Source: Gemmatimonadota bacterium (lineage in GTDB: Bacteria > Gemmatimonadota > Gemmatimonadetes > Palauibacterales > Palauibacteraceae). From it: a DNA stretch of 64,000 bases. Shown piece after piece: positions 12,213 to 28,378 of the stretch. Every line of letters begins with the position of its first letter. Position 1 is the stretch's first letter. The stretch lies in NCBI GenBank assembly GCA_963666735.1, contig OY762926.1:768001-832000 (forward strand), in the 5' to 3' direction. The translations under genes were made by a program, and so were the position numbers. The notes beneath the pieces were generated by a model, which was given only the letters and a program-made list of their open reading frames with translations, was not told the origin of the DNA and made no database searches.

Positions 12213-13772
12213 TCAATCCCTCCGACGGTCCTGGGCCCGGCGCACGAGAACGAGACCGAAGGCCCCCGTCAAGAGCATGGCCAGCAGGGGCGTCACGACG
12301 ACCGTGCTGGATGCCGGAGGTTCGAGGAGAATGTAGTACCACGTGCTCACGGAACTGCGCTTCCCGACCTCGGCGCTGGATCCGTCCCAGGCCTGGAAGG
12401 CGATGGGCGTCGGAGTGCCCTCGGCGAAGTCGAGGCCGTCGCTTTCGACCTCGATCGGACGGCGGACATAAAGCGTCCAGCGTCCCTCCTCCCACCTCGC
12501 TTCCCCGGTGACCGGGTCCTCCGTGAGCGGTTCGACCGAGCCCAGGCCCCGGCCGCGCGCGGCGCCGACACCCGCCTCCGAATCCCACGTCCAGAGATAG
12601 ACCGGCTCGCGGGTGTCCCCCATGAGGAAATACGGCCGGTCGGTGCCCTCCGGCATTTCGAAGGGGAACTGGAGGAGCACCGCGTCGGGGGGTCTCACGG
12701 CCGGCGCGCCGGCGCTGTCGAGGGCGATGGGGTCCGCGCCGTCGAGGTCGAGCGCGGCCGTGATCTTCTCCTGCCACTCGTCCCAATTCGGGTCCGGACT
12801 CATCGATGGGTCGTTCCACCGTACGCGCAGCGCGACATCGGTTCCGTCGTGAAGCCCCTGAACCCAGAGCCCGTCGACCGTCGGCGCGAAATTGCGCGGC
12901 GTCTGGACGATCTGCCCCGACATCGGGAAGTAGAATGCCTCGACGCCCGCCCAGGCCTCCTCGCCGCCATCGGCAGGGAGTCCGCTCTCGGCGCGCCCCA
13001 CGCGGACCACGTCCCGCAGCGGCGGCATCTCGCGCGGTCCGAACGAGGCAAGGTAGTGCGCCAGTTGCCACACCTCGTCCGGAGAGACGACGCCCGAGTT
13101 CATGGCGTCGATCGCCGACGGCATCGGAGTTCCGTCCAGCCCGGTCAGCATCCTCGTATGCATGTCCTCGACGCTGCTGCCGCCGTTCAGAACCCACGCT
13201 TCCGTGAGGTCCGCCGCGCGAATGGGCAGCCCCCGCCAGTCCTCGAGCGTCGGGGCCGAGGTACCGTCGCCCCGGCCGGAAAGGCCGTGGCACTCCTCGC
13301 ACAACATCGTGAGATAGGCCGCCGCCCCCGCCTCGATCGCCGCGGCGCCCCCGCCCGGATCGGATCCGAAATCCAGCGGCTCGGGCGCCGGGCCCTGGCC
13401 GAAGAACCTCGAGAAGCTCTTCAGGTAGACGATGACGTCGTCGATCTCCCGGTCCGTGAGATTGGGCCAGCCCGGCATCGTCGTGCCGGGGAGCCCGTTC
13501 TCGATCGCGAACCGGATGTCCGCGTCCGTCGGGAGCTGTCCGCTCCCGGTGGTGCGGACCTGGTAGAGCGCCTGCGTGAAATCGCGCGGCCGCGGCAGCA
13601 TCGAAGCGGCGGCCGAGCCATCCCCCTGCCCGGTCTCGCCGTGACATTCCGCGCACCAGCGGTCGTACACGACCTTGCCGGCGGCGGCCGCATCTTCCTG
13701 CCCCGCCAGCGCCGGCGAAGTGCCCGCGAACAGGGCGAGCAGCACGATTGCCGTCCGGCGCGTCGCCCTCAT
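12213..13772 (-). CDS. Diheme cytochrome c fused to an ethylbenzene-dehydrogenase-gamma (DOMON-like) domain, with C-terminal TM anchor
   Basis: Signal peptide MRATRRT..., CAECH and CEECH, RWNDPS...PDAVLLQFP...FLMGD...AFQAWDG. ATG overlaps the upstream stop. Confidence 0.85.
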   Translation of the reverse strand: MRATRRTAIVLLALFAGTSPALAGQEDAAAAGKVVYDRWCAECHGETGQGDGSAAASMLPRPRDFTQALYQVRTTGSGQLPTDADIRFAIENGLPGTTMPGWPNLTDREIDDVIVYLKSFSRFFGQGPAPEPLDFGSDPGGGAAAIEAGAAAYLTMLCEECHGLSGRGDGTSAPTLEDWRGLPIRAADLTEAWVLNGGSSVEDMHTRMLTGLDGTPMPSAIDAMNSGVVSPDEVWQLAHYLASFGPREMPPLRDVVRVGRAESGLPADGGEEAWAGVEAFYFPMSGQIVQTPRNFAPTVDGLWVQGLHDGTDVALRVRWNDPSMSPDPNWDEWQEKITAALDLDGADPIALDSAGAPAVRPPDAVLLQFPFEMPEGTDRPYFLMGDTREPVYLWTWDSEAGVGAARGRGLGSVEPLTEDPVTGEARWEEGRWTLYVRRPIEVESDGLDFAEGTPTPIAFQAWDGSSAEVGKRSSVSTWYYILLEPPASSTVVVTPLLAMLLTGAFGLVLVRRAQDRRRD

Positions 13773-14566
13773 TCGTGCCCCCCTTCCCCTTCTTCTTCCC
13801 AAGTGCGCGGCGTGAACCCCGTCTGGTCGTAGAGATAGAGGATCACCGCCCAGATCTCGTCCTGCTCGAGGATCGACTCCCAGGCCGGCATGGCCGAATC
13901 CCACGGCGTCCCCTCGCGCGGGAGGCCGGGACCGCCCTTGACGATGCGCCAGAACACGTAGCTCTCCGTGAGCTGCGGCAGGTTGCCCGAACTCGTGAAA
14001 TCGGCGGGAACCGGGTTGAAGGCCTGCGCGTAGTGGCCCTGGCCGTCGAGCAGGTCGCCGTGGCAGGGCACGCAGTTGCGGACGTAGACCCGCTTCCCGG
14101 CCGCCATGTGCTCCTCCATGGAGCCTTCCTCGCGCAGCGGGTTCTCGAGCCCCGTCAATTCGATCGACTCGCCGCGGAAGGTGAGCTGGTTCGGCGGCGC
14201 GGGGTGTACGGCGCGCAACGTGGCCGGCGCGGCGTAGCTCGGCTTCACCCGTTCGTAGGCGAGCCAGCCGATGAGAACCGGGATCGCCACCATCAGAATC
14301 CCGCGCAGCGTCCGCCGGCCGGGCTGCACCATCGTGGCCTGGATGGGTTCGCGGAAGCGCTGCCAGCGTTCTTCGTCCGCGCTCATGTAGAGGAGGATGC
14401 CGACGAGGACGATGAGCATGTACTCCACGATGACGGAACTCGGGACCGGCGCGCTCGCCACGCCGACCACCGGAAGCACGTATCCGATCACGTACTCGAA
14501 CGCGACATATGACGCGACGACCACGATCGCACCCTGCCAGAACGGGTGGGACAGGTAACGTCTCAT
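13769..14566 (-). CDS. Membrane-anchored monoheme cytochrome c
   Basis: 3 N-terminal TM segments, CVPCH, distal SAMPAW. Confidence 0.88.
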   Translation of the reverse strand: MRRYLSHPFWQGAIVVVASYVAFEYVIGYVLPVVGVASAPVPSSVIVEYMLIVLVGILLYMSADEERWQRFREPIQATMVQPGRRTLRGILMVAIPVLIGWLAYERVKPSYAAPATLRAVHPAPPNQLTFRGESIELTGLENPLREEGSMEEHMAAGKRVYVRNCVPCHGDLLDGQGHYAQAFNPVPADFTSSGNLPQLTESYVFWRIVKGGPGLPREGTPWDSAMPAWESILEQDEIWAVILYLYDQTGFTPRTWEEEGEGGHE

Positions 14567-15399
14567 CGGCCACCTCCCGCGCTGTCGGCCGGCGATTCCG
14601 CCGGATCGCCCGGAGCCTCCGCGCCGGATCCCGCGCCTCCGACGAAGAAGTTCACGAGGACATCCAGTTCCACCGGAGACATGAGATCCCCGAAGATCGT
14701 CGGCATCGTGCCGGCGAAGGCGGAGTACTCCTCGTTGATCGTCGCCATCGGATTCACGATCCCTTCGAGGACGACGGCGGGATCCTGTCCCCGCAACTCC
14801 TCGAAGGGCGGGGCGACCATGCCGCCCTCCCCGCCGAGCTGGTGGCAGGCGAGACAGCCCTGCGCCGTGATCAGGGCGACCGCGTCGACCTGGCTCGGGT
14901 CGGTGACGGCGGCGGGTGGCGGAGCGGACTCGGCCGCATCATCGGCGGCCAGCGCCGCGGCGAAGTCATCCGCGTTCACGGTGATCTCGCCACCCTGCGA
15001 CTCCAGGAAGGCGACGAGCGTCCACAGCTCGGCCTGCGACGAAGTGATGCTCTGATCGATCATGATGGGCTCGAAGCCCTCCACGATGTAGGCCGTCGGG
15101 CTGGTGAGAGACTCCCACAGGTAGTCCTTGCAGCTCTGCCCGGGTACGCGCGTGGCGCACACGCTGCCCGCCACCCCGACGAGATCCGGGGCGCGAGTGC
15201 CGAGGCCATGGCACGCCGTGCAGCCGCCCGCCCCCGCGTAGATCTCCTCGCCGATCGCCGCGAGCTCCTCGGGCGGCATGTCCGCGCTGAGCACGACCTC
15301 CCTGGGCACTGCCGACTGTACCTGCGGGATCACGTTCGCCACGAAGGTGAACACCGCCAGCGTCGCCACGACCGTGAACAGGATCTTCAGGTTCGTCAT
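14563..15399 (-). CDS. Membrane-anchored diheme cytochrome c
   Basis: N-terminal TM segment, CTACH and CLACH. Confidence 0.88.
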   Translation of the reverse strand: MTNLKILFTVVATLAVFTFVANVIPQVQSAVPREVVLSADMPPEELAAIGEEIYAGAGGCTACHGLGTRAPDLVGVAGSVCATRVPGQSCKDYLWESLTSPTAYIVEGFEPIMIDQSITSSQAELWTLVAFLESQGGEITVNADDFAAALAADDAAESAPPPAAVTDPSQVDAVALITAQGCLACHQLGGEGGMVAPPFEELRGQDPAVVLEGIVNPMATINEEYSAFAGTMPTIFGDLMSPVELDVLVNFFVGGAGSGAEAPGDPAESPADSAGGGR

Positions 15400-17157
15400 C
15401 TATTTCTCGCCTCCCGCCTCGGTTTCCTGATAGACGGAACGTTCGGCCAGGCCGCCGAGCCAGAAGATGAACCCGACGAGCGCGAAGAAGATGAGCACGC
15501 AGATGCTGATGATCGTCGCCGCCGGACCCAGCGCCGGGGTGAAGGCTTGCTCGCTCGTGTCGCGGATCACTTCGTAGACGTGCCAGTGCTGCCGGATCCC
15601 GCTGCGGGCGAAGCCCATCAGCCCCATGAGCCACGTAAACGTGACGGCGAGGATGAGGAGCGCGTACTGCGACCGATCCGGCATCTTCCCCCACCGGATC
15701 TCGCCCCGCGACTTGGCGCCCCGCAGCATCACCATGTCGATCCCGATGACGAACAGGATCGTCGCCAGGACCGCGAGCACCTGGTAGACGGAGAAGCCGA
15801 TCCGCACGATCGCCGTCACGAAGTAGCCGTACACCCCGTAAAAGACGACGACGACGGCGGAGAGCGCGAAGGCCGCCCCCTGCAGCATCGTCCCCGCCCG
15901 GACCCACGGTACCACGGGATCCTTGTTCGCCCTCCGGTACATGAGGAAGGAGAGGAACGTCGTCAGGATCATCAGGTTGACGGCGGTATTCTTCGCGCTC
16001 ATCACGCCGAGCACCTGCAGGAAGGGGTGCCGGATTCCTCCCATGGCCGCGATCTCGTCGCGGTCGGCGATCATCGTGTTGGGCGTGGCCCACACGATGA
16101 CTCCCAGGACCAGCACGAGCAGCATCCACTTGATGTAGGGCTGAAATCGTTCGGCTCCGGGGATCCGTCCCATCCCGATCCACAGGTAGTAGTTGCCCGC
16201 GAGGAAGAGGATGCCGATGAGGAAGGCCTGGATGATCCAGAGCCAGCTCATGAAACCGCCCATCATCGTGATGCCCATCTGCTGGCTGAACTCGTAGATC
16301 TCGCGGCCGAGCCAGTAGCCGGCGAAGGGGAGGACGATGAGGGCGCCGATCGCGATCAGGTTGCCGGTATAGCCCATCCAGTCGTAATGGGCGCGTTCCT
16401 CGTCGGTCTTGCTCGTGAGGAAGCGGTACGCGGCGTAGGCGCCGACCACCGCGCCGCCGAACACCACGTTCGCGAGCAGCCGGTGGATGTTGATCGGCAT
16501 CCAGGTCGCGTTGTTGATCGCGCTCCACAGCTGAACGGTCTGGGGCGCCGTGTCCGCCGTGAGTCCCTCGGGCGGGCTCATCATGTAGGTGAGCCACCCG
16601 TTCGCGATGAACATGACGATCGTGCCCCAGATGTTGAGCATGATCCCCAGGCACCAGTGGGCCTTCTTCGCGGCGCCCTTCTTCCACGCGTCCCACCCGT
16701 AGTAGTAGAGGTAGAGCGTGAACGACTCGAGGAAGAAGAGGCCCGCGTACACCCACATCGACGGGGCGAAGATCGCCGTCAGGTACGCCCAGAAACGCGG
16801 GTAGAGGGTCGAGAGGAAGAAGACGAGGATCGCACCCCAGATCGCGGTCGCGCTGTACGCCACGAGCAGGAGGCGGGTAAATTCCTTCGCGAGCTTGTCG
16901 TACTTCTCGTCCCCCCCGAACATCCCGATCGCCTCGATGACGACGGCGAACATGGGCACGCCGAGTACGAAGGCCGCGAACAGCAGGTGGAGCTGGGCCG
17001 CGATCCAGACCGCGCCGCGGCGGTCGAGCCCGAGGAAGTTGAACTCACCGTAGTCGGGCCCCGGAGCCTGCGCGAGGAGCGGCAGCGCGACCGCCAGCGC
17101 GAGAGCGGCCAGCAGTACGCCGCGGGCCACGACACCACGGGTCATCCAGCGCTTCAT
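15400..17157 (-). CDS. Divergent cytochrome bd subunit I (CydA)-like protein
   Basis: QLHLLFAAFVLG, FFLESFT, ANGWLTYMMSP, NIHRLLA, MGFARSGIRQHWHVY (vs canonical GRQPW). No Q-loop. ATG 17157 overlaps the upstream stop. Confidence 0.85.
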   Translation of the reverse strand: MKRWMTRGVVARGVLLAALALAVALPLLAQAPGPDYGEFNFLGLDRRGAVWIAAQLHLLFAAFVLGVPMFAVVIEAIGMFGGDEKYDKLAKEFTRLLLVAYSATAIWGAILVFFLSTLYPRFWAYLTAIFAPSMWVYAGLFFLESFTLYLYYYGWDAWKKGAAKKAHWCLGIMLNIWGTIVMFIANGWLTYMMSPPEGLTADTAPQTVQLWSAINNATWMPINIHRLLANVVFGGAVVGAYAAYRFLTSKTDEERAHYDWMGYTGNLIAIGALIVLPFAGYWLGREIYEFSQQMGITMMGGFMSWLWIIQAFLIGILFLAGNYYLWIGMGRIPGAERFQPYIKWMLLVLVLGVIVWATPNTMIADRDEIAAMGGIRHPFLQVLGVMSAKNTAVNLMILTTFLSFLMYRRANKDPVVPWVRAGTMLQGAAFALSAVVVVFYGVYGYFVTAIVRIGFSVYQVLAVLATILFVIGIDMVMLRGAKSRGEIRWGKMPDRSQYALLILAVTFTWLMGLMGFARSGIRQHWHVYEVIRDTSEQAFTPALGPAATIISICVLIFFALVGFIFWLGGLAERSVYQETEAGGEK

Positions 17158-18566
17158 CGCTTTTCTCCCCGCCCCGCGCTCCGCCGGTTCCGGGCGAAGA
17201 AGGGCATCCGTTTCGAAAAGTCCACCGGCATGGCCCGGCGGACCTCGGTCATCACCTCGAGCGTCACTTCGGTGTCCCCGCGCTCGCGCGCGAACTTTTC
17301 CACCCGCTGCGCCACCACGCCGCGCACGAAGCTGGGGATGGCGTTGAGCCGTGCGTCGGCTTCGCGGCTCCACGGGAGCTTCTGCTCTGCCGCCGAGCCG
17401 TACGTGACCGGCTGGCGCGGCTCGATCGCCTGCGCGATGCCGGGGGCCGGCTCGTAGGCGCAGGAAGGATCGGGACCGAGCAGGTCTCCGTCCACCGCAT
17501 AGGCGCGGGCGCGACAGCCGCCGCACAGCGCCCGATACTCGCAGCGTCCGCACTTCCCGCCCGGTTCGCCGTCCCGCAGCAGACGGAAGACGGTCGCCTC
17601 GCGCCAGATCTCGCCGAACGAGGCATCGGAAAGATCGCCGGCCACCTCCGGCATGTACGGGCACGGCGTCACCTTGCCCTCGGGCGTGATGCGGCAGTAC
17701 TGGACACCGCAGGGGCAGCGCGTGCGGTAGTTGAGGAGCGGCGAGGCCGGATCCCGTTCGTACACGTGCCGCATGAGTTGCGGCTGGCACTTGGAGCGGA
17801 TCATGAGCCGGCCCCGGTATTCGCGCTGGAGTTCGGCGAGCCGGGCCACGAGCTCGTCGTTCTCCTCGGGCTCGAGGCCGCGCATTCCCGCTCCCCTCCC
17901 CGTCTCGACGAGAAAATAGACGTTGAGGCAGACGGCGCCCTTCGCGTCCGCCCAGGCCGCGATGGCATCGAGTTCGTCCCGGTTTCCGCGCGTCACGCTG
18001 AACTGGATGAGGAAGTCGAGCCGATGCTCCCGGAGGCGGCCGACCGCGGCGAGGGTGTCTTCGAGAGCGCCCTCTCCGTGCCGGAAGCGGTCGTGATAGC
18101 GCGGGTTGAGGGAGTCCACGCTGAGCGCCACGCCCTGCACCCCGGCCGCCTTCAAGGAGGTGATGCGCTCGTCCGTGAGGCCGGTGCCGTTCGTGCCGAC
18201 CGTCACCGTCGCGCCGCGCTCGGAGGCGTAGGCCGCGATCTCCTCGAGATCGGAGCGCACCAGCGGCTCTCCTCCGCTGAGGATGAGAAGCGGCGACGAA
18301 CTCACTTCGAGGATCTGATCGATTACGCGGAAACAGGCCGCGGTATCGAGTTCGTTCGCGGCCGCGTGCCAGGACCCCGCCGAAATGTAGCAGTGGGCGC
18401 AGGCGAGGTTGCAGCGGCGCGTGAGGTTCCAGGCGACGACGTGAGGGATGGCGACATCGGGGTCGGCGCCCGGAGACGCGGCGGCGGGGGCGCCGTCCAG
18501 GAGCGACCCGGGCACGGCGGGGGTCCGGTGCGCGACAGCTCCCGCGGCCAGCGGGGCCCCGGTCAC
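17154..18566 (-). CDS. Radical SAM/SPASM enzyme (AhbC/AhbD/NirJ-like) with C-terminal PCP_red-like domain
   Basis: WNLTRRCNLACAHC, SGGEP, SPASM CPCG..C..PCP..CGRCEYRALCGGCRARA..DPSC, C-terminal WSREADARLNAIPSFVRG. Confidence 0.88.
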   Translation of the reverse strand: MTGAPLAAGAVAHRTPAVPGSLLDGAPAAASPGADPDVAIPHVVAWNLTRRCNLACAHCYISAGSWHAAANELDTAACFRVIDQILEVSSSPLLILSGGEPLVRSDLEEIAAYASERGATVTVGTNGTGLTDERITSLKAAGVQGVALSVDSLNPRYHDRFRHGEGALEDTLAAVGRLREHRLDFLIQFSVTRGNRDELDAIAAWADAKGAVCLNVYFLVETGRGAGMRGLEPEENDELVARLAELQREYRGRLMIRSKCQPQLMRHVYERDPASPLLNYRTRCPCGVQYCRITPEGKVTPCPYMPEVAGDLSDASFGEIWREATVFRLLRDGEPGGKCGRCEYRALCGGCRARAYAVDGDLLGPDPSCAYEPAPGIAQAIEPRQPVTYGSAAEQKLPWSREADARLNAIPSFVRGVVAQRVEKFARERGDTEVTLEVMTEVRRAMPVDFSKRMPFFARNRRSAGRGEKR

Positions 18567-20824
18567 TTCGCGCGCGATCCCTGCTCCGAAGCGGGACCCG
18601 CTTTCGCCCCTGCTTCCCCCGCATCCCCCTGCTCCGCTCCCGACTCGTCTCCCAGTTCCGTGCGCGCGAACTGCTCGACGGCGGCGCGGGCGTCGTCGGG
18701 CGAGACCATCTTGAAGTCGACGGGACAGTCCTCCGCCTGTTGTTCGATGTCGCGGATCGGACAGCGCGTCACGCCGGAGGCCTTCGCTTCCTCGATGAAA
18801 CGCTTCATCTCCTCGCTCATCCCGTCGACGCCGGCGGCCTCGGCCCGTGCCTGCTTCGCCTTCAACTCGTTGAACATCACGAGCATCGTGTCGAGGTCGA
18901 ACTCGTCGGCCGCGATCATCGCGTCCTTGTTCTCGTCCATCACGAGCGTGGTCACGCGCCACATGCCCTGGTCGCGGGCAAAGCGCTCCACCGTATTCCG
19001 GGCGAGGGGCCGCGCGATGAGCGGCACGCGGCCCAGGCGGTCAAATGCCTCGTGCGTCCAGACGATCGGGTCGGCGGCCGTGCGGTCGCGAGGGATCTGG
19101 TTGTCCGTCACCGGGCACTTCGCCATCACGGGGAGCGGGGCCTCGAAGGCGTCGGCGTCGCTCGTCTCCACGACGGTCCGCTTCATCGCCTCGCCCGCCT
19201 TCACCTCGGCGAGGGCGAGTTCCTCCGCATCGCCGATGCCCATCACGAGCTGCATGTGGGTCGGGAGGAGCTTCTTGATCGCCTCGTCGAGACGTTCGTT
19301 CGTCACGACGGGCAGCTGGTCGCGGTTCCAGAGTTCCGCCTTCTCGCCGTTCCCGCGGCCGTTACCGGCCTGTCCGACCTCGGCGATCGAGGGGGCGGCC
19401 CCGGTCTCGAGCGCTTCGCGCGCCACCTGCGCCGTGCCGTTGGTCGCGGTCTCGGGTGCCCGGTACTTCTTCTCGTCCTTCGGGTTCGGCACGAAGGCGG
19501 CCGCGTAACGGCTGCCGGGTCCGTAGTGTTCGAGGACGAACTCCTCGACGGCCTTGCGCGCGATCCCGAGCGCGAACGGCGGCACGCGCAGGATCCTCAC
19601 CTCCGCCTCGGGCGCCCACTCGAGCCCGGCCTCCCCGTCCTCTTCGATCCAGGGGATCTCCTCCGGCCGCACCTGCTCGGTCCCGATGAGGAGCACGTTC
19701 GCGTCGGAGAGGTGGACGAGGTTGTCGGCCTGCGACCCCAGATCGGTGCCCTCGATGCGGTGCGAGCCGTGGCGGGCCACGACGATGAGGGAGGGATCGA
19801 TCTCTTCGGCCCACTTGAGGAGGGCGTCGAACGGCTTCCCGATGAGGACCTGCGTCTCGATTTCGACTTCTGGGTATTCGCTCGCCATCACCTCGGCCCG
19901 CTTGATGTTCGCCTTGCAGAGGCGGAGAAGGCCCTTGTCGATGATGTTGTTATGGAGTTCTTCCTGTTCCTCGAACTTGAACACCTTCGAGGCCTGGACC
20001 GAGAGCACGTCCTTGATGTTGTGGAAGACGACGTGGTGGTACTGCACGTCGAACGCGCTCGCGATGTAGACTTTGGCCCCGTATTCGCGGGCCATGTCGA
20101 GCGCGATGCGCAGCCCCTTGTAGGCGTAGGCGGAGCCGTCCACGCCCACGAGCCACTTGCCGCCTTCGAGCGTCCGGTCGTTGCGGATGATGAGCGCGTC
20201 CTTCTCGATCCCGCGCAACGCACGCGCGACCACGCCGCCGAGGCGGCTCCGCTCCTGCCGTCCGAGACCGTGGGCGCCGATCGTCACGAGGTCGTAATCG
20301 CGCCCGGAGGTGCCCGCGAGCTTGTCCTCCTGTTCCTCATCCTCGGCCACCAGGCGGCCGCCCTCGCCCAGCTTGACGTCCGTCCGCTGCTTTTCGCTGC
20401 CGTCGTAGTTGTGGGCGATGTTCGGATCGAAGCCGATGAGGCTCGGGAGACGTCCGCCGCCGCGGTTCGCCTCGTTGATGATCTCCTCGTAGTTGATGCC
20501 CTCGAGGAGCTGCCGCGTGACGGTCACTCCGGCTTCGGCACAGCGGCGGTGGAGCTGGTCCAGGAAGCTGTCGGAGATGAGCTGCAGCCCCTTCTCGATC
20601 AGCTTGTCGTGGATCTTCCGCTGCCTGCGGATCTCGGCCGGTTCCTGGAACTGGGCCGGAAGCCCGATCTCGAGCTGGCGGAACCGGATGTCGTGGAGGC
20701 GCGCGGCGTAGACGTGGGAGCCGGTGACGCGGCCCCCGAAGCGAGCGCAGAGTTCGATGGCGCGGTCGACGGCCCAGTCCGACTCGCGCGAGTTATCGAC
20801 CGGGACAAATACCTCTCGATACAT
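18563..20824 (-). CDS. Tandem universal stress protein domains + two PCP_red-like domains
   Basis: VFVPVDNS..GAHG..LGGV and LVGVDGS..ARHG..LGSQA USP motifs, then WAPEAEVRILRVPPF and WTHEAFDRLGRVPLIAR. Confidence 0.85.
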   Translation of the reverse strand: MYREVFVPVDNSRESDWAVDRAIELCARFGGRVTGSHVYAARLHDIRFRQLEIGLPAQFQEPAEIRRQRKIHDKLIEKGLQLISDSFLDQLHRRCAEAGVTVTRQLLEGINYEEIINEANRGGGRLPSLIGFDPNIAHNYDGSEKQRTDVKLGEGGRLVAEDEEQEDKLAGTSGRDYDLVTIGAHGLGRQERSRLGGVVARALRGIEKDALIIRNDRTLEGGKWLVGVDGSAYAYKGLRIALDMAREYGAKVYIASAFDVQYHHVVFHNIKDVLSVQASKVFKFEEQEELHNNIIDKGLLRLCKANIKRAEVMASEYPEVEIETQVLIGKPFDALLKWAEEIDPSLIVVARHGSHRIEGTDLGSQADNLVHLSDANVLLIGTEQVRPEEIPWIEEDGEAGLEWAPEAEVRILRVPPFALGIARKAVEEFVLEHYGPGSRYAAAFVPNPKDEKKYRAPETATNGTAQVAREALETGAAPSIAEVGQAGNGRGNGEKAELWNRDQLPVVTNERLDEAIKKLLPTHMQLVMGIGDAEELALAEVKAGEAMKRTVVETSDADAFEAPLPVMAKCPVTDNQIPRDRTAADPIVWTHEAFDRLGRVPLIARPLARNTVERFARDQGMWRVTTLVMDENKDAMIAADEFDLDTMLVMFNELKAKQARAEAAGVDGMSEEMKRFIEEAKASGVTRCPIRDIEQQAEDCPVDFKMVSPDDARAAVEQFARTELGDESGAEQGDAGEAGAKAGPASEQGSRAK

Positions 20825-21038
20825 GGCGCTCCGTTGGACGGCGTACTGCGGCCGGTTTTACGCTGCTCGCCCCAGCCTCGCCCGGGTGCGAAGCCCGGAT
20901 GTACGCAGTCCGCGCAGATCGGCCACGGACGAGGAATTCGGCGACGCTGGTCCAAGGTTGTCGAGGCTTCCGAAAGGTCCGGGGCCCCGCTTATGCGCCA
21001 AGAAGTTGCGGCTGCCCACGGGGAAAGTCAAACGCCCT

Positions 21039-21746
21039 CTAGGGAGTCCGCGGCCAACGGAGGCGGCGGCTCCAATCCGCGGCGAAAATCGCGGCCCCGA
21101 AGGTGAAGCCGGCCGCGACGAGAAGGCTGCGGAGCCAGACGGAAGCGTCTATCGGAATCCCGCTTGCGCCTGCCGAGAGGGCCGCCTGAAGCGGGGTGTA
21201 CGGATTCCACTCGGCGGCGAGGGAGGCCCAGCCCGGAGCCGGGGTCCGGAAGAAGCCGGCGAAGTGCAGGAGAAGGAGGGAGAGCGCGGCCGAGGCGAGG
21301 GCCGCTTCCGCGAGCGAGCGCACCGCTGCCGCCACGAGCGGGCCGAGGAGGTTCGCGAACCACAGCGTGGCGAGGACGGACGGGAGGACGACGGATCCCG
21401 CCCCGAGACCATCGGCCGACCACAGGAGGATGAGGACCGCGGGCGCGAGTTGGAGCGCGTCGATCGTCATGCCCGCGAGGGTGCGCTCGAGGAGCCAGCG
21501 GGGCGCGGAGTAACCGGCGCGGAGGATCTCATCGAGCCAGCCGTCGCGGGCGTCGCGCACGGCGGGGATGGCTGAGCCGAAGGCTCCGAAGAAGACGATG
21601 AAGACGCCGAACACGGCGACCCGGTGCGGCGCCGCGGCCGCGCTGAGGGCGACGGGCGTCAGGAGGAGGAGCGGGACCGCCACGTTCCACAGGAACAACC
21701 GCCGACGCCGGAGGGCCGTGCGCCATGCCAGCCGCCAGATCGTCAC
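21039..21746 (-). CDS. ABC-2-type exporter permease
   Basis: ~6 TM segments, RDARDGWLD and WNPYT motifs, GTG overlaps the ATPase stop. Confidence 0.75.
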   Translation of the reverse strand: MTIWRLAWRTALRRRRLFLWNVAVPLLLLTPVALSAAAAPHRVAVFGVFIVFFGAFGSAIPAVRDARDGWLDEILRAGYSAPRWLLERTLAGMTIDALQLAPAVLILLWSADGLGAGSVVLPSVLATLWFANLLGPLVAAAVRSLAEAALASAALSLLLLHFAGFFRTPAPGWASLAAEWNPYTPLQAALSAGASGIPIDASVWLRSLLVAAGFTFGAAIFAADWSRRLRWPRTP

Positions 21747-22690
21747 CGGCCCTCCTCTTCCAGGCGGCGGCCCGTCAGCGCCACGAACACGTCCGCGAGT
21801 CCGGGTTTCCGGATGTCGACGGAAGCCACGGGAACGCCGCCGCGCAGGATCCAGGCCAGCGTCTCGGGCAGGGCTCGGCTCGGATCCCGGACTTCGAGGG
21901 TGACCGTGCTCTCGTCCCCCGTCGAGGTACGTACGCCTTCCGGGGCGGGGCCGAGGGTGTCCGGGTCGGGACTCAGCCCCGCGGCGAACCGGATCTCGAC
22001 GCGGGGACGGGCGCCGACGCGCTCGAGGAGGCGGGCCGGGGTGTCCGCCACCGCACAGCGTCCGTCGACGATGAACGCGACGCGGTCGCACTGGGACGCG
22101 GCGAAGTCCGGATCATGGGCGGAGAGCACCGCGGTCCCCCCTGCGGCGCGGTGGCCGGCGAGCGCGTCGGCGAGGGCGGCCCGGCCGCCGGGGTCCAGCC
22201 CGGCCAACGGCTCGTCGAGGAGGAGGAGCGGGGCCGCGGTTGCGAACGCCGCCGCGAGGGCGAGCCGCCGCCGCATGCCGCTCGAGTAGGTGCCGGCGGG
22301 GCGGTCCGCGTCGACGTCCAGCCCGAAGCGCCCGAGCCAGGCGTCCGCCGCGGCGCGCGCTTGCCCGGACCGGGCGCCGTGGAGTTCGAGCAGGACGACC
22401 GCATTCTCGCGCCCGCTGAGCCAGGTGCGGAAAGCGGGCTGGTCGGGGGCAAGCCAGCGCCGTCCGGCGTCATCGACCCGAGGGTCCCGGCGGATTCCCG
22501 GGACATCGTCGCCGCCCAGGAGGCGCAGGAAGGTGGATTTTCCCGATCCGTTCGGGCCGAGGAGCGCCAGGCGTTCCCCCTCCCGGACGTCGAGCGAGAG
22601 GTCCCGGAGGGCGGGACTACCATCGGGATAGTCGTAGGCGAGGGCTTCCGCCGTTACGAGCGGCGGCTCCGGCCGCGGGCCGGGGTTCAC
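21743..22690 (-). CDS. ABC transporter ATP-binding protein (exporter type)
   Basis: GPNGSGKST, YSSGM, LLLLDEP, C-terminal PGLADVF. Confidence 0.9.
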   Translation of the reverse strand: MNPGPRPEPPLVTAEALAYDYPDGSPALRDLSLDVREGERLALLGPNGSGKSTFLRLLGGDDVPGIRRDPRVDDAGRRWLAPDQPAFRTWLSGRENAVVLLELHGARSGQARAAADAWLGRFGLDVDADRPAGTYSSGMRRRLALAAAFATAAPLLLLDEPLAGLDPGGRAALADALAGHRAAGGTAVLSAHDPDFAASQCDRVAFIVDGRCAVADTPARLLERVGARPRVEIRFAAGLSPDPDTLGPAPEGVRTSTGDESTVTLEVRDPSRALPETLAWILRGGVPVASVDIRKPGLADVFVALTGRRLEEEGR

Positions 22691-22986
22691 GGGACGATCT
22701 CGACCCCGTCTTCGCTGACGGTGATCGCATCGACCGGACAGGACGCACACGCCTCGATGAAACGCTTCCGCGAGGCATGTTCCGGTCCGGTGAACACCGC
22801 CACCCCATCCTCGTCGAGGTCGAAGGCCTCCGGTGCTTCCTCGATGCAGTCCCCGAAGCCGACGCACAGGTCGCGGTCGATGACGGCTCGGAGTCCGTGG
22901 ACTTCCCTTTCCATCAACGGGTCCGGAGCCCGCGCCGCTTCTCCGGCTTCTCCCGCATCTCCCATCCGTCCGCCACCGTCCGTCAC
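22687..22986 (-). CDS. Single-cluster ferredoxin (probably 3Fe-4S)
   Basis: IDRDLCVGFGDC...CASCPVDAI. Start uncertain. Confidence 0.85.
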   Translation of the reverse strand: MTDGGGRMGDAGEAGEAARAPDPLMEREVHGLRAVIDRDLCVGFGDCIEEAPEAFDLDEDGVAVFTGPEHASRKRFIEACASCPVDAITVSEDGVEIVP

Positions 22987-22992
22987 CGGCGG

Positions 22993-23436
22993 TTACATGC
23001 CTTCCAGTCCGAGATCGGACCGGGCACGGTCCATGACGGCGGGCGTCATCTCCTCGATCCCGCGCTCCCGGGCGTATTCGTTGTAGATCTTCTTCACCAT
23101 GCCCCGCACGAAGGAGGGCACCTGACCGAGCCGCTCCACCGCGTCCACGCTCCAGCGTACGGGGCCGGGGTTCGTCAACGGGGGCGCGGGCAGGGCCTCG
23201 TCGCGCGCCTGTTCCACGCCGGCGCGGATGCCCTCGAAGTTCTCGTCGGGCACGGTCCGGCCTCCCACCTTCACGCCGAGCGAGCTCACGAGTTGGGTCT
23301 CCATGGGGTTGGCGAGCATCGCGGTCTTGCGCCCGCAGGCGGGACACCTGAATACGGCGGCCATCGTGCCGTCTCCCGGCACGGCCCGCTCGTCGAAGGC
23401 CATCTGCCGGTCGCAATCGACGCAGAGGAACTTCAT
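22993..23436 (-). CDS. Zn-ribbon/rubredoxin-like + PCP_red-like domain protein
   Basis: MKFLCVDC...FRCPACG, C-terminal WSVDAVERLGQVPSFVRGMVKK. ATG overlaps the Mrp stop. Confidence 0.82.
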   Translation of the reverse strand: MKFLCVDCDRQMAFDERAVPGDGTMAAVFRCPACGRKTAMLANPMETQLVSSLGVKVGGRTVPDENFEGIRAGVEQARDEALPAPPLTNPGPVRWSVDAVERLGQVPSFVRGMVKKIYNEYARERGIEEMTPAVMDRARSDLGLEGM

Positions 23437-24323
23437 GGCGCCCCGGACCCCGCGCGAAGGGCGTCGGCCATCTGCCGCAGGGCCTCCGCCGCCCCCCCCC
23501 CGCCGGCCAGCCACCCTTCGAGCCGCCCCTCGTCGGCTGCGGCTCCCAACGCCGCGTCGAAGGGGAGGCGTGCGAGCAGGGGCGTCCGAAAGCGGCGCGC
23601 CAACTCGGCTCCGGCGTCTCCGGCGTGCAGCGGGGCGAGGGCTCCGCAGGCATCGCAGCGAACCCCCGCGAGGTTCTCCACGAGTCCCAGGATGGGGAGG
23701 TCGCGCCGCCGGGTGAGATCGAGCGAACGGGCTACGGCATCGCGGGAGGCCGCGCTCGGGATCGTGACCGCGACGATGCCCGCCAGTCCGGGGACGAGCG
23801 CGTGAAGTTCGGCGAGCCGCTGGGTGCCCGGCGGCAGGTCGACGAGGAGCACGTCCAGCTCTCCCCAGGCGACATCCGAAAGAAATTCGCGCAGGGCCCC
23901 GCGTTCCTGGGCGCCCCGCCACACGAAACCGGCGTCGGCGGGCTCACGCCAGGTGAGGGCGCGGCCGGACTCCACGAGGAGCGCCATCGACATGACGCGA
24001 ACCCCGGCCCGTGAGGAGGGTGGCGCAAATCCGTCCGGGGATTCGGCGAGGATCCCCGGCTCGATGCCGAGAAGGCGCGGTACGCTGGGGCCGTTCAGGT
24101 CCGCGTCGATCAGACCCACGCGATCCCCGCGGCGGGCAAACGCCGTCGCCAGGAGAGCGGAAACGAGACTCTTCCCCACTCCGCCCTTGCCGCTCATCAC
24201 CGCGATCACGCGCGCCACGGAGGCGAGGCGCACGGACACGCGCTCGTCCCCGGCCGCGATCTGATCGGGGAGATCGGAGCGCAGTTCGTCCACTTCGTGG
24301 TAGGTGCGGAATCCGGAGTTCAT
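23433..24323 (-). CDS. Mrp/NBP35/ApbC-family P-loop ATPase (Fe-S carrier)
   Basis: SGKGGVGKS, DADLNGP, VDLPPGT, ENL..RCDACG. Confidence 0.9.
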   Translation of the reverse strand: MNSGFRTYHEVDELRSDLPDQIAAGDERVSVRLASVARVIAVMSGKGGVGKSLVSALLATAFARRGDRVGLIDADLNGPSVPRLLGIEPGILAESPDGFAPPSSRAGVRVMSMALLVESGRALTWREPADAGFVWRGAQERGALREFLSDVAWGELDVLLVDLPPGTQRLAELHALVPGLAGIVAVTIPSAASRDAVARSLDLTRRRDLPILGLVENLAGVRCDACGALAPLHAGDAGAELARRFRTPLLARLPFDAALGAAADEGRLEGWLAGGGGAAEALRQMADALRAGSGAP

Positions 24324-24451
24324 CGGGGATGGAAGCTCCCACCGGGCCGGGAGAGGGTCAACAGGCGCCGTAGACGAAGTTTCGGCGGGCTTCCCGCCAT
24401 CGTACGATGTTCGGGAGGGTGGCCGTAGTCCATCGTGAATCGGAACGTCCC

Positions 24452-24679
24452 ATGTCGATCATCGGGTTTCACCGTTTCCTCATCGCAACCGCTATCGTCT
24501 TCTGCGCCGTCTTCGCCGCGTGGGAGTTCAGGATCTTCGCGAGCGCCGGCGGCTTCGGAGCGCTCGCGATCGGCGTGATCTTCGCGTTCGCGGCGGCGGC
24601 GCTGGCCTACTATCTCGCCAACCTGACCAGGTTCCTGAGCGGCACGTCGCACGACTCTCCATGGCGCCGGGGGCGGTGA
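24452..24679 (+). CDS. Small 2-TM membrane protein
   Basis: MSIIGFHRFLIATAIVFC..., two hydrophobic helices, stop overlaps the next GTG. Confidence 0.65.
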   Translation: MSIIGFHRFLIATAIVFCAVFAAWEFRIFASAGGFGALAIGVIFAFAAAALAYYLANLTRFLSGTSHDSPWRRGR

Positions 24680-25305
24680 GGCGCGAGGAACGGGTGGGCG
24701 GAGGCCGGCCGGTTGCGCTGTACGTCGCGGGCGCCGTGTTCCTGCTCATCATCGCCGTCGTCGTGGCCGGCTCGTTCGTGAGACCCGATCCCCTGACCTT
24801 CGTCCCCACGCCCGCCGCCCCGCAGTCTCCCATGGACGGGTTCGTGGTGGACACCGTGACGATCGATGCGCGGGACGGCTCGCGGTGGGTCCACTTCGAT
24901 TTCGACAAGGGGAGCGCGGTCGATGGACCGCTCGCCGGATGGGATCTCGCGCTCAACCGGTACCACGTCGTCGTTAACGGCGGGACCGGCTACCCGGGAG
25001 CCGGCGGGGCCATCGCCACCACTACGCCGTGGGAGGCCGTGACCGAGGCCCCCGCGTCCGGTTACGCGACGACGGAGGGGGCGCTGGAGGATGGCCCGGC
25101 GACGCCCGGACTCGAACGCTGGTATCAGTACGGGTTCTTCTCGCACCTTCTCGAACCGAAGGATGAGACGTACGTGATCCGGACGGCGGAGGGGCGCTAC
25201 GCGAAGTTGAGGATCCTGAGCTACTACTGCCCGCAGGCGACGCCCGGGTGCGTGACCCTCATGTACGGATATCAGGGGGACGGCTCGCGCCGCCTCACGG
25301 GCTGA
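24676..25305 (+). CDS. HmuY-family heme-binding protein (N-terminal anchor)
   Basis: WVHFDF, GWDLA, WYQY, YVIRTAEGRYAKLRILSYY motifs typical of HmuY. Confidence 0.8.
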   Translation: MRREERVGGGRPVALYVAGAVFLLIIAVVVAGSFVRPDPLTFVPTPAAPQSPMDGFVVDTVTIDARDGSRWVHFDFDKGSAVDGPLAGWDLALNRYHVVVNGGTGYPGAGGAIATTTPWEAVTEAPASGYATTEGALEDGPATPGLERWYQYGFFSHLLEPKDETYVIRTAEGRYAKLRILSYYCPQATPGCVTLMYGYQGDGSRRLTG

Positions 25306-26251
25306 ACCCGCGGGCGCGGTCGACGAGTTCGGCCGCGCCGGCCGCCAGCATGCGGCGTGCGAGGCGAAGGCCCACGTCTTCCGCCTCCGGGGCCGGGCCC
25401 TCCGCGGCATCGGCGACGGGCGCGCCACCCTCCACGTCGTAGACGGCCGCGCGCAGGCGGAGATCCTGCCCCTCCACCGACGCCCGGGCCGCAATCGGCA
25501 CGCGGCAGCCGCCTTCGAGCGCCGCGAGGAGTCCTCGTTCGGCGGTGACCTCGGCTCGGGCGACTGGATCGTCCAGCGCCCGGACGCGCGCGCCCACGCC
25601 GTCTTCAGCGGCGCGACACTGCACCGCGAGCGCACCCTGACCGGGGGCGGGCAGCCAGCCCTCGTTCATGGCGAACGCGCCGGCGGGCCACAGGCCCAGG
25701 CGCCGCAGCCCGGCCGCCGCCAGAACGAGGGCCTCGAAACGCCCCTCCTCCAGCTTTCGGAGCCGCGTGTCCACGTTGCCCCGGACCGGCCGGGGCTCGA
25801 GATCGGCCCGCGTCGCGCGCACCTGCGCCGCGCGGCGCAGCGATGACGTGCCCACGCGCGCGCCGGCGGGCAACCGCCGCAAGATCTCCGGTCCGCCGCC
25901 TTCCGCCACGGTGGAGACCCGGGAGTCCCGGACCACGAGCGCGTCGCGGGGGTCTTCGCGGAGCGGGATGGCGGCCAGCGAGAGTCCGGCGGGCGAGTCG
26001 ACCGGGAGGTCCTTGAGCGAGTGGACGGCGATGTCGATGCGGCCCCTTCGAAGGGCGCGCTCGAGGTCCTCCGTGAACAGGCCCTTGGCGCCGATGGCCG
26101 GGAGCGGCGTGTGAGGGTCGCGGTCTCCGCCGGTCGAAATGAAGCGGTAGTCGACGGAAAGACCGGGCCAGCGTTCCTCCAGCCGGTCTCCCACCCACGT
26201 CGCCTGCGCCCGGGAGAGCGGCGACCGCCGGGCCCCGATGACAAACTTCAA
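25295..26251 (-). CDS. hemC: Hydroxymethylbilane synthase
   Basis: KGLFT, AVHSLKD, GTSSLRR, RGNVDTRL, GGCRVP. TTG start. Confidence 0.95.
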   Translation of the reverse strand: MKFVIGARRSPLSRAQATWVGDRLEERWPGLSVDYRFISTGGDRDPHTPLPAIGAKGLFTEDLERALRRGRIDIAVHSLKDLPVDSPAGLSLAAIPLREDPRDALVVRDSRVSTVAEGGGPEILRRLPAGARVGTSSLRRAAQVRATRADLEPRPVRGNVDTRLRKLEEGRFEALVLAAAGLRRLGLWPAGAFAMNEGWLPAPGQGALAVQCRAAEDGVGARVRALDDPVARAEVTAERGLLAALEGGCRVPIAARASVEGQDLRLRAAVYDVEGGAPVADAAEGPAPEAEDVGLRLARRMLAAGAAELVDRARGFSP

Positions 26252-26670
26252 CCGACCATGGAGGAGTAGGTCCCCCGCCCGACCGCGCAGAGGCGGCCCT
26301 TGTCGTCGTGCACGTCCACATCCGACACGGAGATGGTGCGTCCGTAGCGCCGGAGGCGGGCCGTGGCGCGCAGCCACGGACCGGTGCAGGGGCGCAGATA
26401 GTCGACCCGCAGCGAGATCGTGGGGACCCCGCCTCCCGCTCTCACCGCAACGGCCATGTCCCCCGCGATGTCGATCAGCGAGGCGACCGGACCGCCATGA
26501 TAGATCGTGCCGTCGCGGGTCAGCCCGGGCCGCATGATCATCCGAAGGACGACGGTGTCCTCGTCCTCGCTCATCTCCGCCAGGCTGACGCCGAGCGCGA
26601 CGATGGCCTCGGATCCGGCGAGTATCGACTCGACCAGGATCCAGGCGGGCGAAGCTCTGTTCGACTCCAC
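26248..26670 (-). CDS. PaaI-family thioesterase
   Basis: YHGGPVASLID, DYLRP hotdog-fold motifs. Confidence 0.85.
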   Translation of the reverse strand: MESNRASPAWILVESILAGSEAIVALGVSLAEMSEDEDTVVLRMIMRPGLTRDGTIYHGGPVASLIDIAGDMAVAVRAGGGVPTISLRVDYLRPCTGPWLRATARLRRYGRTISVSDVDVHDDKGRLCAVGRGTYSSMVG

Positions 26671-26680: not shown

Positions 26681-28378
26681 CTACCGCGCGTAATAGAGGA
26701 GCAGGAAGAGTCCGAGCAGGATGGCGACCCAGATCACGGAGGTGCCGGTGGGCCAGGTGCGGGCGAGGACGCCGCTGGGGCCCATGTAGCGCCGCGCCGA
26801 GGCGATCGCGTCCCCGGCCGCGGACACGGTGCGCGCCGCCGCGGCGTCCCGCAGCCGCCACGCAACGTTCCCGACCGCGAGCGCGACGCCCCTGCCGAGG
26901 CGGCGGTAGAGCCAGTCCGCGTCGAGGTTCGCCGACCGCAACTCGTGCGGTTCGCGGTCCGACAGCCTCAGCCACACGAACGCCAGAACGGCGAAGAAGA
27001 GCAGCTGCAACTGGGTGATCACGTGCGCGCGGGTGAACGGCACGTACGCCACCTCGTACGGCAGGTTCGGATAGAGGAACAGCGTCGGGAACGACCCGTT
27101 GAAGACGCACAGGAAGGCGGCCATGCCCATCGCGATGAGCATGCTCGCCGGGGCCTCCTTCGTGCGGATGCCGGAATCGGGCCCGAAGAAGCCGTAGAAC
27201 GGGATCTTGATGCCCGCGTGGTGGAGCACGCCGGCGGATGCGAAGAGGAGGAAGAGCCAGACGATGTCGAGGTTCTGCTCCAGCGCGGCCGCCATCACCA
27301 TCGACTTGCTCACGAAGCCGCTGAACAGCGGGAAGGCCGAGATCGACGCGGCCCCGATCAGGCAGAGCGCCGCCGTCTTCGGCATGCTCTTGTAGAGTCC
27401 GCCCAGCTCGCTGCACTTCGTCGTGCCCGTGCGGTAGAGCAGCGCCCCCGTCGACATGAACAGGAGTCCCTTGAAGAGCACGTCGTTGAAGGCGTGCGCG
27501 ACCGCCCCGTTCACGGCCAATTCGGTGCCGATCCCGACGCCGCACACCATGAAGCCGATCTGGTTGATCATGCTGTAGCCGAGCACCCGGCGCAGATCGT
27601 TCTCGATCACGGCGTAGAAGATCGGGAACAGCGTCATGAGGACGCCGACGTAGATGAGCAGCTCCTCCCCCTGGTATCCCCGCGCCAGAGCGTAGACGGC
27701 GACCTTGGTCGTGAACGCGCTCAGGAAGACGGCGCCGCTGTACGTGGCCTCCGGATACGCGTCCGTGAGCCAGGTGTGCAGGAGGGGGAACGCCGCCTTG
27801 ATCCCGATCCCGAGCAGGATGAGGTTCGTGCCCAGCGTGCCGGTCTCCATGGGCCCGAAAGCGATGGACCCGGCCGCCCGCGCGTGGGCGATGATCCCTG
27901 CCAGGAGCACGACGCCCGACCCGACCTGCACGATGAGGTAGCGGATCCCCGCCCGGTAGGAACGTTCCGTGCCGCGCGCCCACACGAGGAAGACGGAACT
28001 CAGGGCCAGAAGCTCCCAGAAGACGAAGAGCGTGATCAGGTCGCCGGCCTGGACCGCCCCGGTCGCGGCGCCTGCGTAGACCAGTGCCGAGGCGTCCTCG
28101 AGCGCGCTTCCTCCGCGCCGGGCGAAGATGAGCCCGATGAGGGCGGCGATGTGGAAGAGCCATCCGAAGATCCGGCTCAGCCCGTCGATGCGGACGAGCG
28201 TGAGATCGTAGGAGAAGAACGAGACCTGCCCGAACTCTCCTTCGCCCAGCGCGAGGAGCGCGGCGAGGCTCGCGACGGGCAGGAGGAGCACCCACCCCGT
28301 ACGCGCGCGGCCGCGTAGCAGCGGAACGAAGAGCGCCCCGAGGATCATCACCGCGGCGGGAGGGAGGCTACCGATCAT
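26681..28378 (-). CDS. mrpD: Mrp-type Na+/H+ antiporter subunit D-like (third copy)
   Basis: FWELLA, KAAFPLLHTWLTDAYPEA, Proton_antipo_M pattern. Confidence 0.88.
   Translation of the reverse strand: MIGSLPPAAVMILGALFVPLLRGRARTGWVLLLPVASLAALLALGEGEFGQVSFFSYDLTLVRIDGLSRIFGWLFHIAALIGLIFARRGGSALEDASALVYAGAATGAVQAGDLITLFVFWELLALSSVFLVWARGTERSYRAGIRYLIVQVGSGVVLLAGIIAHARAAGSIAFGPMETGTLGTNLILLGIGIKAAFPLLHTWLTDAYPEATYSGAVFLSAFTTKVAVYALARGYQGEELLIYVGVLMTLFPIFYAVIENDLRRVLGYSMINQIGFMVCGVGIGTELAVNGAVAHAFNDVLFKGLLFMSTGALLYRTGTTKCSELGGLYKSMPKTAALCLIGAASISAFPLFSGFVSKSMVMAAALEQNLDIVWLFLLFASAGVLHHAGIKIPFYGFFGPDSGIRTKEAPASMLIAMGMAAFLCVFNGSFPTLFLYPNLPYEVAYVPFTRAHVITQLQLLFFAVLAFVWLRLSDREPHELRSANLDADWLYRRLGRGVALAVGNVAWRLRDAAAARTVSAAGDAIASARRYMGPSGVLARTWPTGTSVIWVAILLGLFLLLYYAR

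Follow-up and report, generated by a model that had tools for sequence, protein, structure and literature searches.

The locus examined here raises the question of why a run of genes sharing a domain of chlorophyll biosynthesis leads directly into a gene for a cytochrome bd-like oxidase subunit. The window (the whole stretch of 64,000 nucleotides analysed, positions 768,001 to 832,000 of contig OY762926.1, with a G+C content of 67-73%) belongs to the single-contig 3.98-Mb genome of a Ca. Palauibacter (Gemmatimonadota). All genes of the module lie on its minus strand, in the order Mrp-type P-loop ATPase, Zn-ribbon protein with a PCP_red domain (ZnPCP), ferredoxin, ATP-binding cassette (ABC) ATPase, ABC-2 permease, tandem universal stress protein (USP) with PCP_red domains (USP-PCP_red), radical S-adenosylmethionine/SPASM enzyme with a further PCP_red domain (rSAM), bd-like subunit and cytochromes c. 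It is argued below that this region probably serves a respiratory gene island as its heme-supplying arm in the cytoplasm. Genes were called from frame plots and by inspection of start codons. The initial annotation of this DNA, made from the sequence alone, had described the genes as mostly coupled by stop/start overlaps, and 4-nt overlaps were found at five junctions (Mrp/ZnPCP, ferredoxin/ABC ATPase, ABC ATPase/permease, USP-PCP_red/rSAM and rSAM/bd-like), the permease and USP genes being parted by a gap of 214 bp (20825-21038). Every domain named in that annotation was recovered by Pfam.

The element common to the module is the domain PCP_red (PF08369). A shared motif, present in four copies in three proteins, had been attributed to it by eye, and a search with the Pfam model had been suggested as a check. 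All three proteins matched above the gathering score of 32.5 bits (ZnPCP 48.5-49.8, USP-PCP_red 53.7 over two stretches, and rSAM 56.0 bits), and the copies lie where the motif had been seen. In a scan of the whole genome exactly four PCP_red copies were detected, all of them in the cluster, three over the cut-off (61.8, 51.9 and 43.7 bits) and a fourth at 22.4 bits. The same scan revealed no further copy, no BchB and no chlorophyll genes, in agreement with the absence of the latter noticed initially. In a control scan of 14 reference genomes, the cyanobacterium was the only one with a match. The occurrence of PCP_red in the cluster is far beyond chance.

The structural identity of the domain is consistent with these scores. 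Residues 91-143 of ZnPCP match, in a sequence search of the PDB, the stand-alone PCP_red structures 2kru and 2l09, solved by nuclear magnetic resonance (NMR), as well as the C-termini of BchB/ChlB (2xdq_B, 3aek_B and 2ynm_D), and the copy of rSAM matches residues 450-508 of 2xdq_B. A three-helix fold is predicted for both other proteins: the AlphaFold2 model of the second copy of USP-PCP_red superposes on 2kru with a template modelling (TM) score of 0.76 and a root-mean-square deviation of 0.8 over 50 columns, and in the model of rSAM the helices 401-409, 412-428 and 436-445 are predicted with a local distance difference test score (pLDDT) of 94-97. Beyond this genome, a search with the domain profile gave 1714 representative clusters at E<=0.001. 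Among the best 150 of these, tandem arrays of up to six copies occur, the recurrent partners are USP (35), rubredoxin-like (13), Radical_SAM (8) and SPASM (7) domains, and one representative is fused to a heme-oxygenase-like domain. Clusters of USP plus PCP_red are also present in Pseudomonadota and Nitrospirota in the protein Atlas, a resource that gives no gene context. The C-terminal helix of BchB has been described as lying over the pigment pocket (PMC4071322). Taking into account this position, the tandem arrays and the fusion to a heme enzyme, we infer that PCP_red could be, by analogy, a tetrapyrrole-handling domain.

The enzyme that would give this domain something to handle is rSAM. 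Radical_SAM and SPASM domains score over their Pfam cut-offs in it, and its best NCBIfam matches are NirJ2 (TIGR04055, 273.6 bits), AhbD (TIGR04545, 269.2 bits) and TIGR04053 (247 bits), followed at a distance by NirJ (174), NirJ1 (156) and AhbC (152 bits). Since these scores are below every curated cut-off, including the 500-bit equivalog cut-offs of AhbD and NirJ2, the protein is labelled AhbD/NirJ2-like and not a member of either family. Judged from these matches, it would belong to the class of enzymes acting on heme side chains. In 69 relatives, the cysteines of the CxxxCxxC motif (C52, C56 and C59) and those for the SPASM auxiliary clusters (C284, C286, C291, C339, C342, C348, C351 and C369) are invariant. 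The AlphaFold2 model (pLDDT 84.6, predicted TM score 0.84) includes an unstructured linker, 361-398, at pLDDT 90-95, and hints that the PCP_red domain may pack against the enzyme core. Foldseek with this model returned only generic SPASM enzymes (PqqE, SkfB, SuiB, CteB and anSME), and a sequence search of the PDB found no solved AhbD or NirJ. The genome is without a second AhbD-like gene, the next match scoring 77 bits. The fusion of radical SAM, SPASM and PCP_red is widespread, with 3575 proteins at E<=1e-10 among 8000 scored and PF08369, PF13186 and PF04055 together in all 120 of the 120 listed; in public annotation these proteins are named 'radical SAM protein', 'AdoMet-dependent heme synthase' or 'PCP reductase family protein'.

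As for the substrate of such an enzyme, a ChdC-family gene is located about 8 kb before the start of the window (G000:C1:759833-760498) and a ferrochelatase is present in the genome; heme is therefore probably made via coproheme, as judged from these two genes. ChdC was found in 24 of 61 sampled genomes, comprising all 14 that have the cluster and 10 of the 47 that have not, and in relatives it is often found 9-25 kb away from the bd-like gene on the contig they share, so that ChdC may still be part of the island. In organisms of the coproporphyrin pathway that have none of the other Ahb enzymes, AhbD has been described as an oxygen-independent decarboxylase (PMC13564367, PMC7242693). Other heme-related genes surround the cluster: an HmuY-like gene, hemC, an aa3-type oxidase and a UbiA-family gene. 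The first two are retained in 39 and 32, respectively, of the 61 related loci that extend 8 kb or more upstream, and in a Myxococcota locus (L051) rSAM stands beside CtaA/CtaB and a DUF2470/CREG protein.

The presumed client of the module is the bd-like complex. Its subunit I homologue exceeds the Cyt_bd_oxida_I (PF01654) cut-off of 26.2 bits, and residues 53-244 are the only part aligning to solved CydA proteins, with H57, in the place of the conserved heme-ligand histidine, corresponding to the His of 'TVHIIYA' in 5doq_A. The gene stands beside cytochrome c genes and lacks a partner CydB.

The association of the module with this gene was followed in three surveys. A genome scan gave 193 relatives; the 80 best loci were retained, Gemmatimonadota, including Ca. 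Palauibacter, accounting for nearly all, and one of them is 99% identical to the window, which identifies the organism. The window proteins were then compared with them by tblastn at E<=1e-8, on the 63 loci with at least 6.5 kb upstream and the 61 with at least 6.5 kb downstream. Mrp and ZnPCP were each kept in 61 of the 63 loci, USP-PCP_red in 60, ferredoxin in 58, the ABC ATPase in 47 and the permease in 46; downstream, the bd-like gene was kept in 58 of 61, the three cytochromes in 58, 59 and 59, COX2 in 60 and COX1 in 57. The pattern survives rearrangement. In two Acidobacteriota loci the order is bd-like gene, two cytochromes c, cytochrome c/EB_dh, USP-PCP_red, an unrelated gene, Mrp, ZnPCP, a toxin-antitoxin insert and rSAM, and in two further Acidobacteriota genomes a distance of 18-45 kb separates rSAM from the remaining PCP_red genes of its contig, the bd-like gene adjoining the latter. 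A Myxococcota contig (L096/L092, G003:C485) carries a bd-like gene fused to a C-terminal cytochrome c, then a USP-PCP_red gene with five copies, then a cytochrome c; in that genome rSAM is on a separate contig beside CtaA and CtaB.

Among 301 Gemmatimonadota genomes, PCP_red occurs in 103 and the bd-like gene, counted at E<=1e-30, in 86, all of them within the 103. The 17 genomes with PCP_red only comprise 15 with one or two high-scoring matches and two with matches at contig ends; true BchB above the cut-off was present, at the place of the match, in all five phototrophic relatives tested among the 15. Finally, a metagenome scan anchored on a distant USP-PCP_red protein, 31-38% identical to that of the window, gave 78 loci with G+C contents of 0.38-0.66. 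Among the 29 of at least 12 kb, rSAM was encountered in 22, the bd-like gene with all three cytochromes in 14, Mrp with ZnPCP in three, and none of these genes in four. The gene-neighbourhood survey that the initial annotation had called for thus upholds its expectation that the unit accompanies the bd-like gene across phyla: the association is kept in Gemmatimonadota, Acidobacteriota, one Myxococcota contig and many metagenome lineages. Domain identities, gene order and co-inheritance with bd-like genes are direct observations.

Among the accessory proteins, USP-PCP_red is the most conserved, at 61-98% identity in the loci that keep it. Three of its Cys-Pro pairs (C74/P75, C192/P193 and C204/P205 of alignment A4, corresponding to C570, C688 and C700) are invariant in 42 sequences, in the contexts KCPV, RCPI and DCPV, and these stretches presumably resemble the motif of yeast HAP1. 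Cys-Pro motifs are described as binding heme transiently (PMC10377097). The AlphaFold2 model of the C-terminal half (residues 497-722) has a mean pLDDT of 60.8 and is confident only over its residues 41-135; Foldseek of this half against the PDB returned nothing besides the PCP_red domain. A sequence [C/M]-P-V-D-F follows PCP_red invariably both in USP-PCP_red (C700-PVDFK, 18722-18727) and in rSAM (M446-PVDFSK, in the region of 17229-17231), a likeness that is weak because a shared 4-mer is expected by chance in two such proteins.

Mrp and ZnPCP are clearly a pair: they are adjacent and overlapping in 61 of the 63 loci, by 4 nt in most of the pairs listed. Mrp matches MrpORP (210.5 bits) and ApbC (139.5 bits), both under the equivalog cut-offs, and neither its P-loop (S44-K51, GKGGVGK) nor the cysteines C223 and C226 vary among 42 sequences. 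The invariant residues of ZnPCP are C5, C8, C31, C34, W95, R102, P107, F109, V110 and R111, and Zn_ribbon_4 falls below threshold in 26 of 42 members. The predicted complex of an Mrp dimer with ZnPCP, two ATP and one 4Fe-4S cluster reached scores of 0.31, 0.31 and 0.32, the mark being 0.32 and the controls lying at 0.00, and is given no weight on either side of the question of binding. The ABC ATPase and permease are regarded as accessory, since the pair is kept in only 47 and 46 of the 63 loci.

On this basis the following mechanism can be proposed, to which we give about an even chance of being correct. The rSAM enzyme would be an AhbD-type heme b synthase that decarboxylates coproheme independently of oxygen, or an enzyme of closely related chemistry with heme propionates as its target, and it would take the place of the coproporphyrin route's peroxide-dependent ChdC when oxygen runs short. 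Mrp would load its three [4Fe-4S] clusters and the ferredoxin would give the electron. The three-helix PCP_red domain would be the common module of rSAM, the Mrp-coupled Zn-ribbon protein and the tandem-USP protein (with 2-5 copies), allowing them to pass a tetrapyrrole on or to hold each other, and the new heme would in this way reach the neighbouring bd-like/cytochrome c/EB_dh complex, with the ABC exporter as an optional extra. What we infer in this scheme is the substrate, the parts played by Mrp and the ferredoxin, and the ligand of PCP_red. The heme-modification role put forward initially fits, because rSAM is AhbD/NirJ2-like; the assignment to the heme b synthase type and the coproheme route go beyond it. 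A broader generalisation is more tentative and in our opinion doubtful: PCP_red might be a cytoplasmic hand-off domain for tetrapyrroles which, with the AhbD-like rSAM, constitutes a dedicated heme relay inserting heme, perhaps non-canonical, into bd-like oxidases of the OR-N type. Such a relay would range over Gemmatimonadota, Acidobacteriota and Myxococcota and, according to the Atlas clusters, may include Nitrospirota and Pseudomonadota.

Several points weigh against the proposed mechanism. Another heme reaction is possible, because rSAM reaches about 270 bits where the cut-off is 500. No computed result shows PCP_red binding a tetrapyrrole, and the part of BchB over the pocket may, as we presume, sit upstream of the 45-residue PCP_red bundle; no description of the contacts of that bundle in BchB was found in literature searches. 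It is equally possible that the Cys-Pro cysteines of USP-PCP_red are ligands of an Fe-S cluster, and the CPVD motif of this protein also occurs in the neighbouring ferredoxin. The tallies of PCP_red and bd-like genes include an unpublished genome (G187) positive in both, and co-presence partly reflects the gain or loss of one island, since the genes are physically linked and related genomes are not independent. Moreover, there is no need for a heme synthase of the housekeeping kind to be bound to a single respiratory complex. The tie to bd-like genes may reflect a low-oxygen island where ChdC cannot work, or a special heme for the complex.

The same data can be read in other ways. BchB partners with a SIMIBI ATPase, and PCP_red could be a docking tag recruiting the Mrp dimer to its clients, with Mrp as a BchL/NifH-like, ATP-driven donor of electrons or Fe-S clusters fed by ferredoxin. 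The overlapping Mrp and ZnPCP genes, which remain paired in Acidobacteriota and metagenome loci, speak for this idea, as do the invariant CxxC of Mrp, which would fit a bridging cluster, and the presence of a three-cluster radical SAM enzyme as a natural client. We consider it unlikely: Mrp is near in only three of the 29 longer metagenome loci, against 22 for rSAM (although it could be encoded elsewhere there), three to six tandem copies are odd for a single docking site, and no text was found that places the C-terminus of BchB at the interface with BchL. The chemistry itself may also differ, with rSAM making a non-canonical heme for the bd-like site (with altered propionate or vinyl groups, as NirJ does for heme d1) and the PCP_red proteins keeping it apart from the heme b pool. 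A score between families and under every equivalog cut-off, a link to the bd-like gene that is strict across phyla and a ChdC that already gives heme b in the same genomes would agree with this proposal, and for the bd-like oxidase family the passages of the preprint by Murali et al. (10.1101/2021.01.16.426971) infer function only. We hold this to be quite improbable, given that the top two matches are both AhbD-type, that in L051 rSAM lies beside the synthases of heme O and heme A, which use heme b, and that no companion enzymes for further chemistry were seen in the cluster.

The least probable of these readings, to which we allow little weight, is that of ordinary juxtaposition: a housekeeping anaerobic AhbD, stress regulators of the USP and Zn-ribbon types, and a PCP_red domain serving for oligomerisation or regulation unrelated to heme, with synteny simply inherited. 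USP domains are stress modules of a general kind, housekeeping genes surround some relatives of USP-PCP_red (L098), and one phylum supplies most of the genome loci. Against this, the set survives rearrangement in three phyla and on contigs with G+C contents of 0.41-0.65, all four PCP_red copies of the genome are in one cluster, and USP, rubredoxin-like and radical SAM/SPASM domains are recurrent partners of PCP_red among the best 150 representatives.

The coordinates of the module and of the adjoining cytochrome genes are collected in Table 1.

Table 1. Genes and domains of the module and adjoining cytochrome genes (positions in the window).
Feature	Positions (strand)	Length or residues	Matches and remarks
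Mrp/NBP35-type P-loop ATPase	23433-24323 (-)	296 aa	PF10609, 206 bits; CxxC at C223/C226
ZnPCP, Zn-ribbon + PCP_red protein	22993-23436 (-)	147 aa	start overlaps Mrp stop by 4 nt
PCP_red copy of ZnPCP	23008-23166 (-)	aa 91-143	
Small ferredoxin	22687-22986 (-)		Fer4_13, 43 bits; start uncertain (22986, 22965 or 22914)
ABC ATPase, DrrA-like	21743-22690 (-)		ABC_tran; drrA 143.5 bits and CcmA 89.9 bits, both below cut-off
ABC-2 permease	21039-21746 (-)		ABC2_membrane, 42.9 bits
Tandem USP + 2 PCP_red protein	18563-20824 (-)	753 aa	Usp 107.7 bits; PCP_red 53.7 bits
PCP_red copy 1 of USP protein	19478-19636 (-)	aa 397-449	22.4 bits; incomplete, model positions 1-30 of 45
PCP_red copy 2 of USP protein	18914-19072 (-)	aa 585-637	43.7 bits
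Stretch of USP protein with three Cys-Pro pairs	18722-19117 (-)		C570-P 19112-19117; C688-P 18758-18763; C700-P 18722-18727
rSAM, radical SAM/SPASM + PCP_red enzyme	17154-18566 (-)	470 aa	AhbD/NirJ2-like
PCP_red copy of rSAM	17226-17384 (-)	aa 395-447	61.8 bits
bd-like subunit I homologue	15400-17157 (-)	585 aa	Cyt_bd_oxida_I, 74 bits
Dihaem cytochrome c	14563-15399 (-)		CxxCH at residues 60 and 182; Pfam match
Membrane-anchored monohaem cytochrome c	13769-14566 (-)		CxxCH at residue 165; Pfam match
Dihaem cytochrome c fused to EB_dh (haem b) domain	12213-13772 (-)		EB_dh 45.5 bits; DMSO_red_II_gam 80.7 bits, below cut-off

Contigs from RNA libraries of close relatives, 90-99% alike and derived from three studies (two of sponge and one marine), extend over the cytochromes, the bd-like gene, rSAM and USP-PCP_red, and span the rSAM/bd-like and USP-PCP_red/rSAM junctions. 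They give a weak hint that USP-PCP_red, rSAM and the bd-like gene are expressed, weak because the contigs are those of relatives and DNA carry-over is possible. The region 21340-24441, from Mrp to the ABC genes, is mostly thin or uncovered in them, which is no evidence of silence. No Rfam match at E<=0.1 was obtained over 12000-26500, and a scan of 20700-24700 gave no promoter-like sites and two terminator-like ones, against 1.6 expected, and is of no diagnostic value.

Around the module, the HmuY-like gene (a heme-binding family, 60 bits) is at 24520-25305 (+), divergent from Mrp, and a complete Mrp-type cation/proton antiporter operon, at 26681-34060 (-), lies upstream of hemC and a thioesterase gene. 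Between the cytochrome c/EB_dh gene and COX2 there is a CarboxypepD_reg-like lipoprotein gene (11279-12166, -), retained in 58 of 61 loci and in distant metagenome loci, with a weak match to an anammox S-layer family. The aa3-type oxidase (COX2, COX1, COX3 and COX4) and the UbiA-family gene, probably a heme O synthase, follow directly downstream (6783-11188, -). Farther on, a protein of 1082 residues (1608-4856, -) combines a transporter region similar to the major facilitator superfamily (MFS)/TLC, HEAT repeats and a cyclic-nucleotide-binding domain. In related loci, toxin-antitoxin or nucleotidyltransferase/HEPN pairs stand between ZnPCP and rSAM in Acidobacteriota (L049, 7437-9907; L060, 9128-9950), and a low-G+C lineage (L098, 10001-12322) encodes a protein with two USP domains, five PCP_red domains and a rubredoxin-like domain among housekeeping genes, with no bd-like gene within 10 kb.

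To our knowledge, little has been established on how heme is brought to membrane oxidases within the bacterial cell, and we know of no measurement of cofactors or function for the bd-like (OR-N) oxidases, which are presumed to serve nitrite oxidisers and many uncultured groups as terminal oxidases. The module would offer a concrete handle on this delivery, consisting of one enzyme and three small soluble proteins. It would also place the many non-photosynthetic 'PCP reductase family' proteins in a functional setting for the first time, and would extend AhbD-type enzymes in organisms of the coproporphyrin pathway to Gram-negative phyla. In a literature search, no paper was found that connects PCP_red with radical SAM enzymes, with USP proteins or with bd-like oxidases; PF08369 returned unrelated papers only, Gemmatimonadota together with bd-like cytochrome returned none, and a comparison paper on Nitrospirales makes no mention of 'universal stress' or 'radical SAM'. 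The term 'radical SAM' is likewise absent from the text of the Murali et al. preprint, whose supplements may list neighbouring genes. The accessory module that goes with this AhbD-type enzyme appears to be so far undescribed.

Compared with known systems, rSAM shares with its best family matches, AhbD and NirJ2, the CxxxCxxC radical SAM core and the SPASM domain, and its genome probably makes coproheme in the absence of other Ahb enzymes, as described for some coproporphyrin-pathway bacteria (PMC13564367). Unlike AhbD, whose model has 339 positions, it is extended at its C-terminus by a PCP_red domain and about 95 residues of conserved tail, and, unlike AhbD and NirJ2, it is accompanied by dedicated partners carrying PCP_red and by a cluster containing the bd-like gene. 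The C-terminus of BchB/ChlB, 2kru and 2l09 have the same Pfam domain as the proteins described here, with the conserved W, A, R, P and F-V-R positions and the three-helix fold, and BchB belongs to an enzyme that acts on a tetrapyrrole and contains Fe-S clusters, as proposed for this module. In contrast, the module has no BchN/BchB nitrogenase-like domains, and PCP_red is found on USP, Zn-ribbon or rubredoxin-like and radical SAM proteins, in arrays of up to six. Membership of DPOR (dark-operative protochlorophyllide reductase; BchL/BchN/BchB) was considered and rejected, taking into account that the only PCP_red copies of the genome are the four of the cluster and that the phototrophic relatives tested possess true BchB. 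Mrp has the features of the Mrp/NBP35/ApbC carriers (the P-loop GKGGVGKS, the invariant CxxC and PF10609 over its cut-off), but it is under the ApbC and MrpORP cut-offs and is translationally coupled to a PCP_red protein. The bd-like protein resembles the OR-N proteins of the preprint, as far as described there, in having Cyt_bd_oxida_I over the first helices only, no CydB and cytochrome c neighbours (10.1101/2021.01.16.426971). In its arrangement, the module is reminiscent of NifX/NafY, a small cofactor-handling domain that is either fused to a radical SAM enzyme (NifB-NifX) or present in separate carrier proteins (PMC13474568). Fold and cofactor are unrelated and the likeness serves as a working analogy; if it holds, the logic of the heme relay would resemble that of the NifB-NifX/NafY line, which serves the nitrogenase cofactor.

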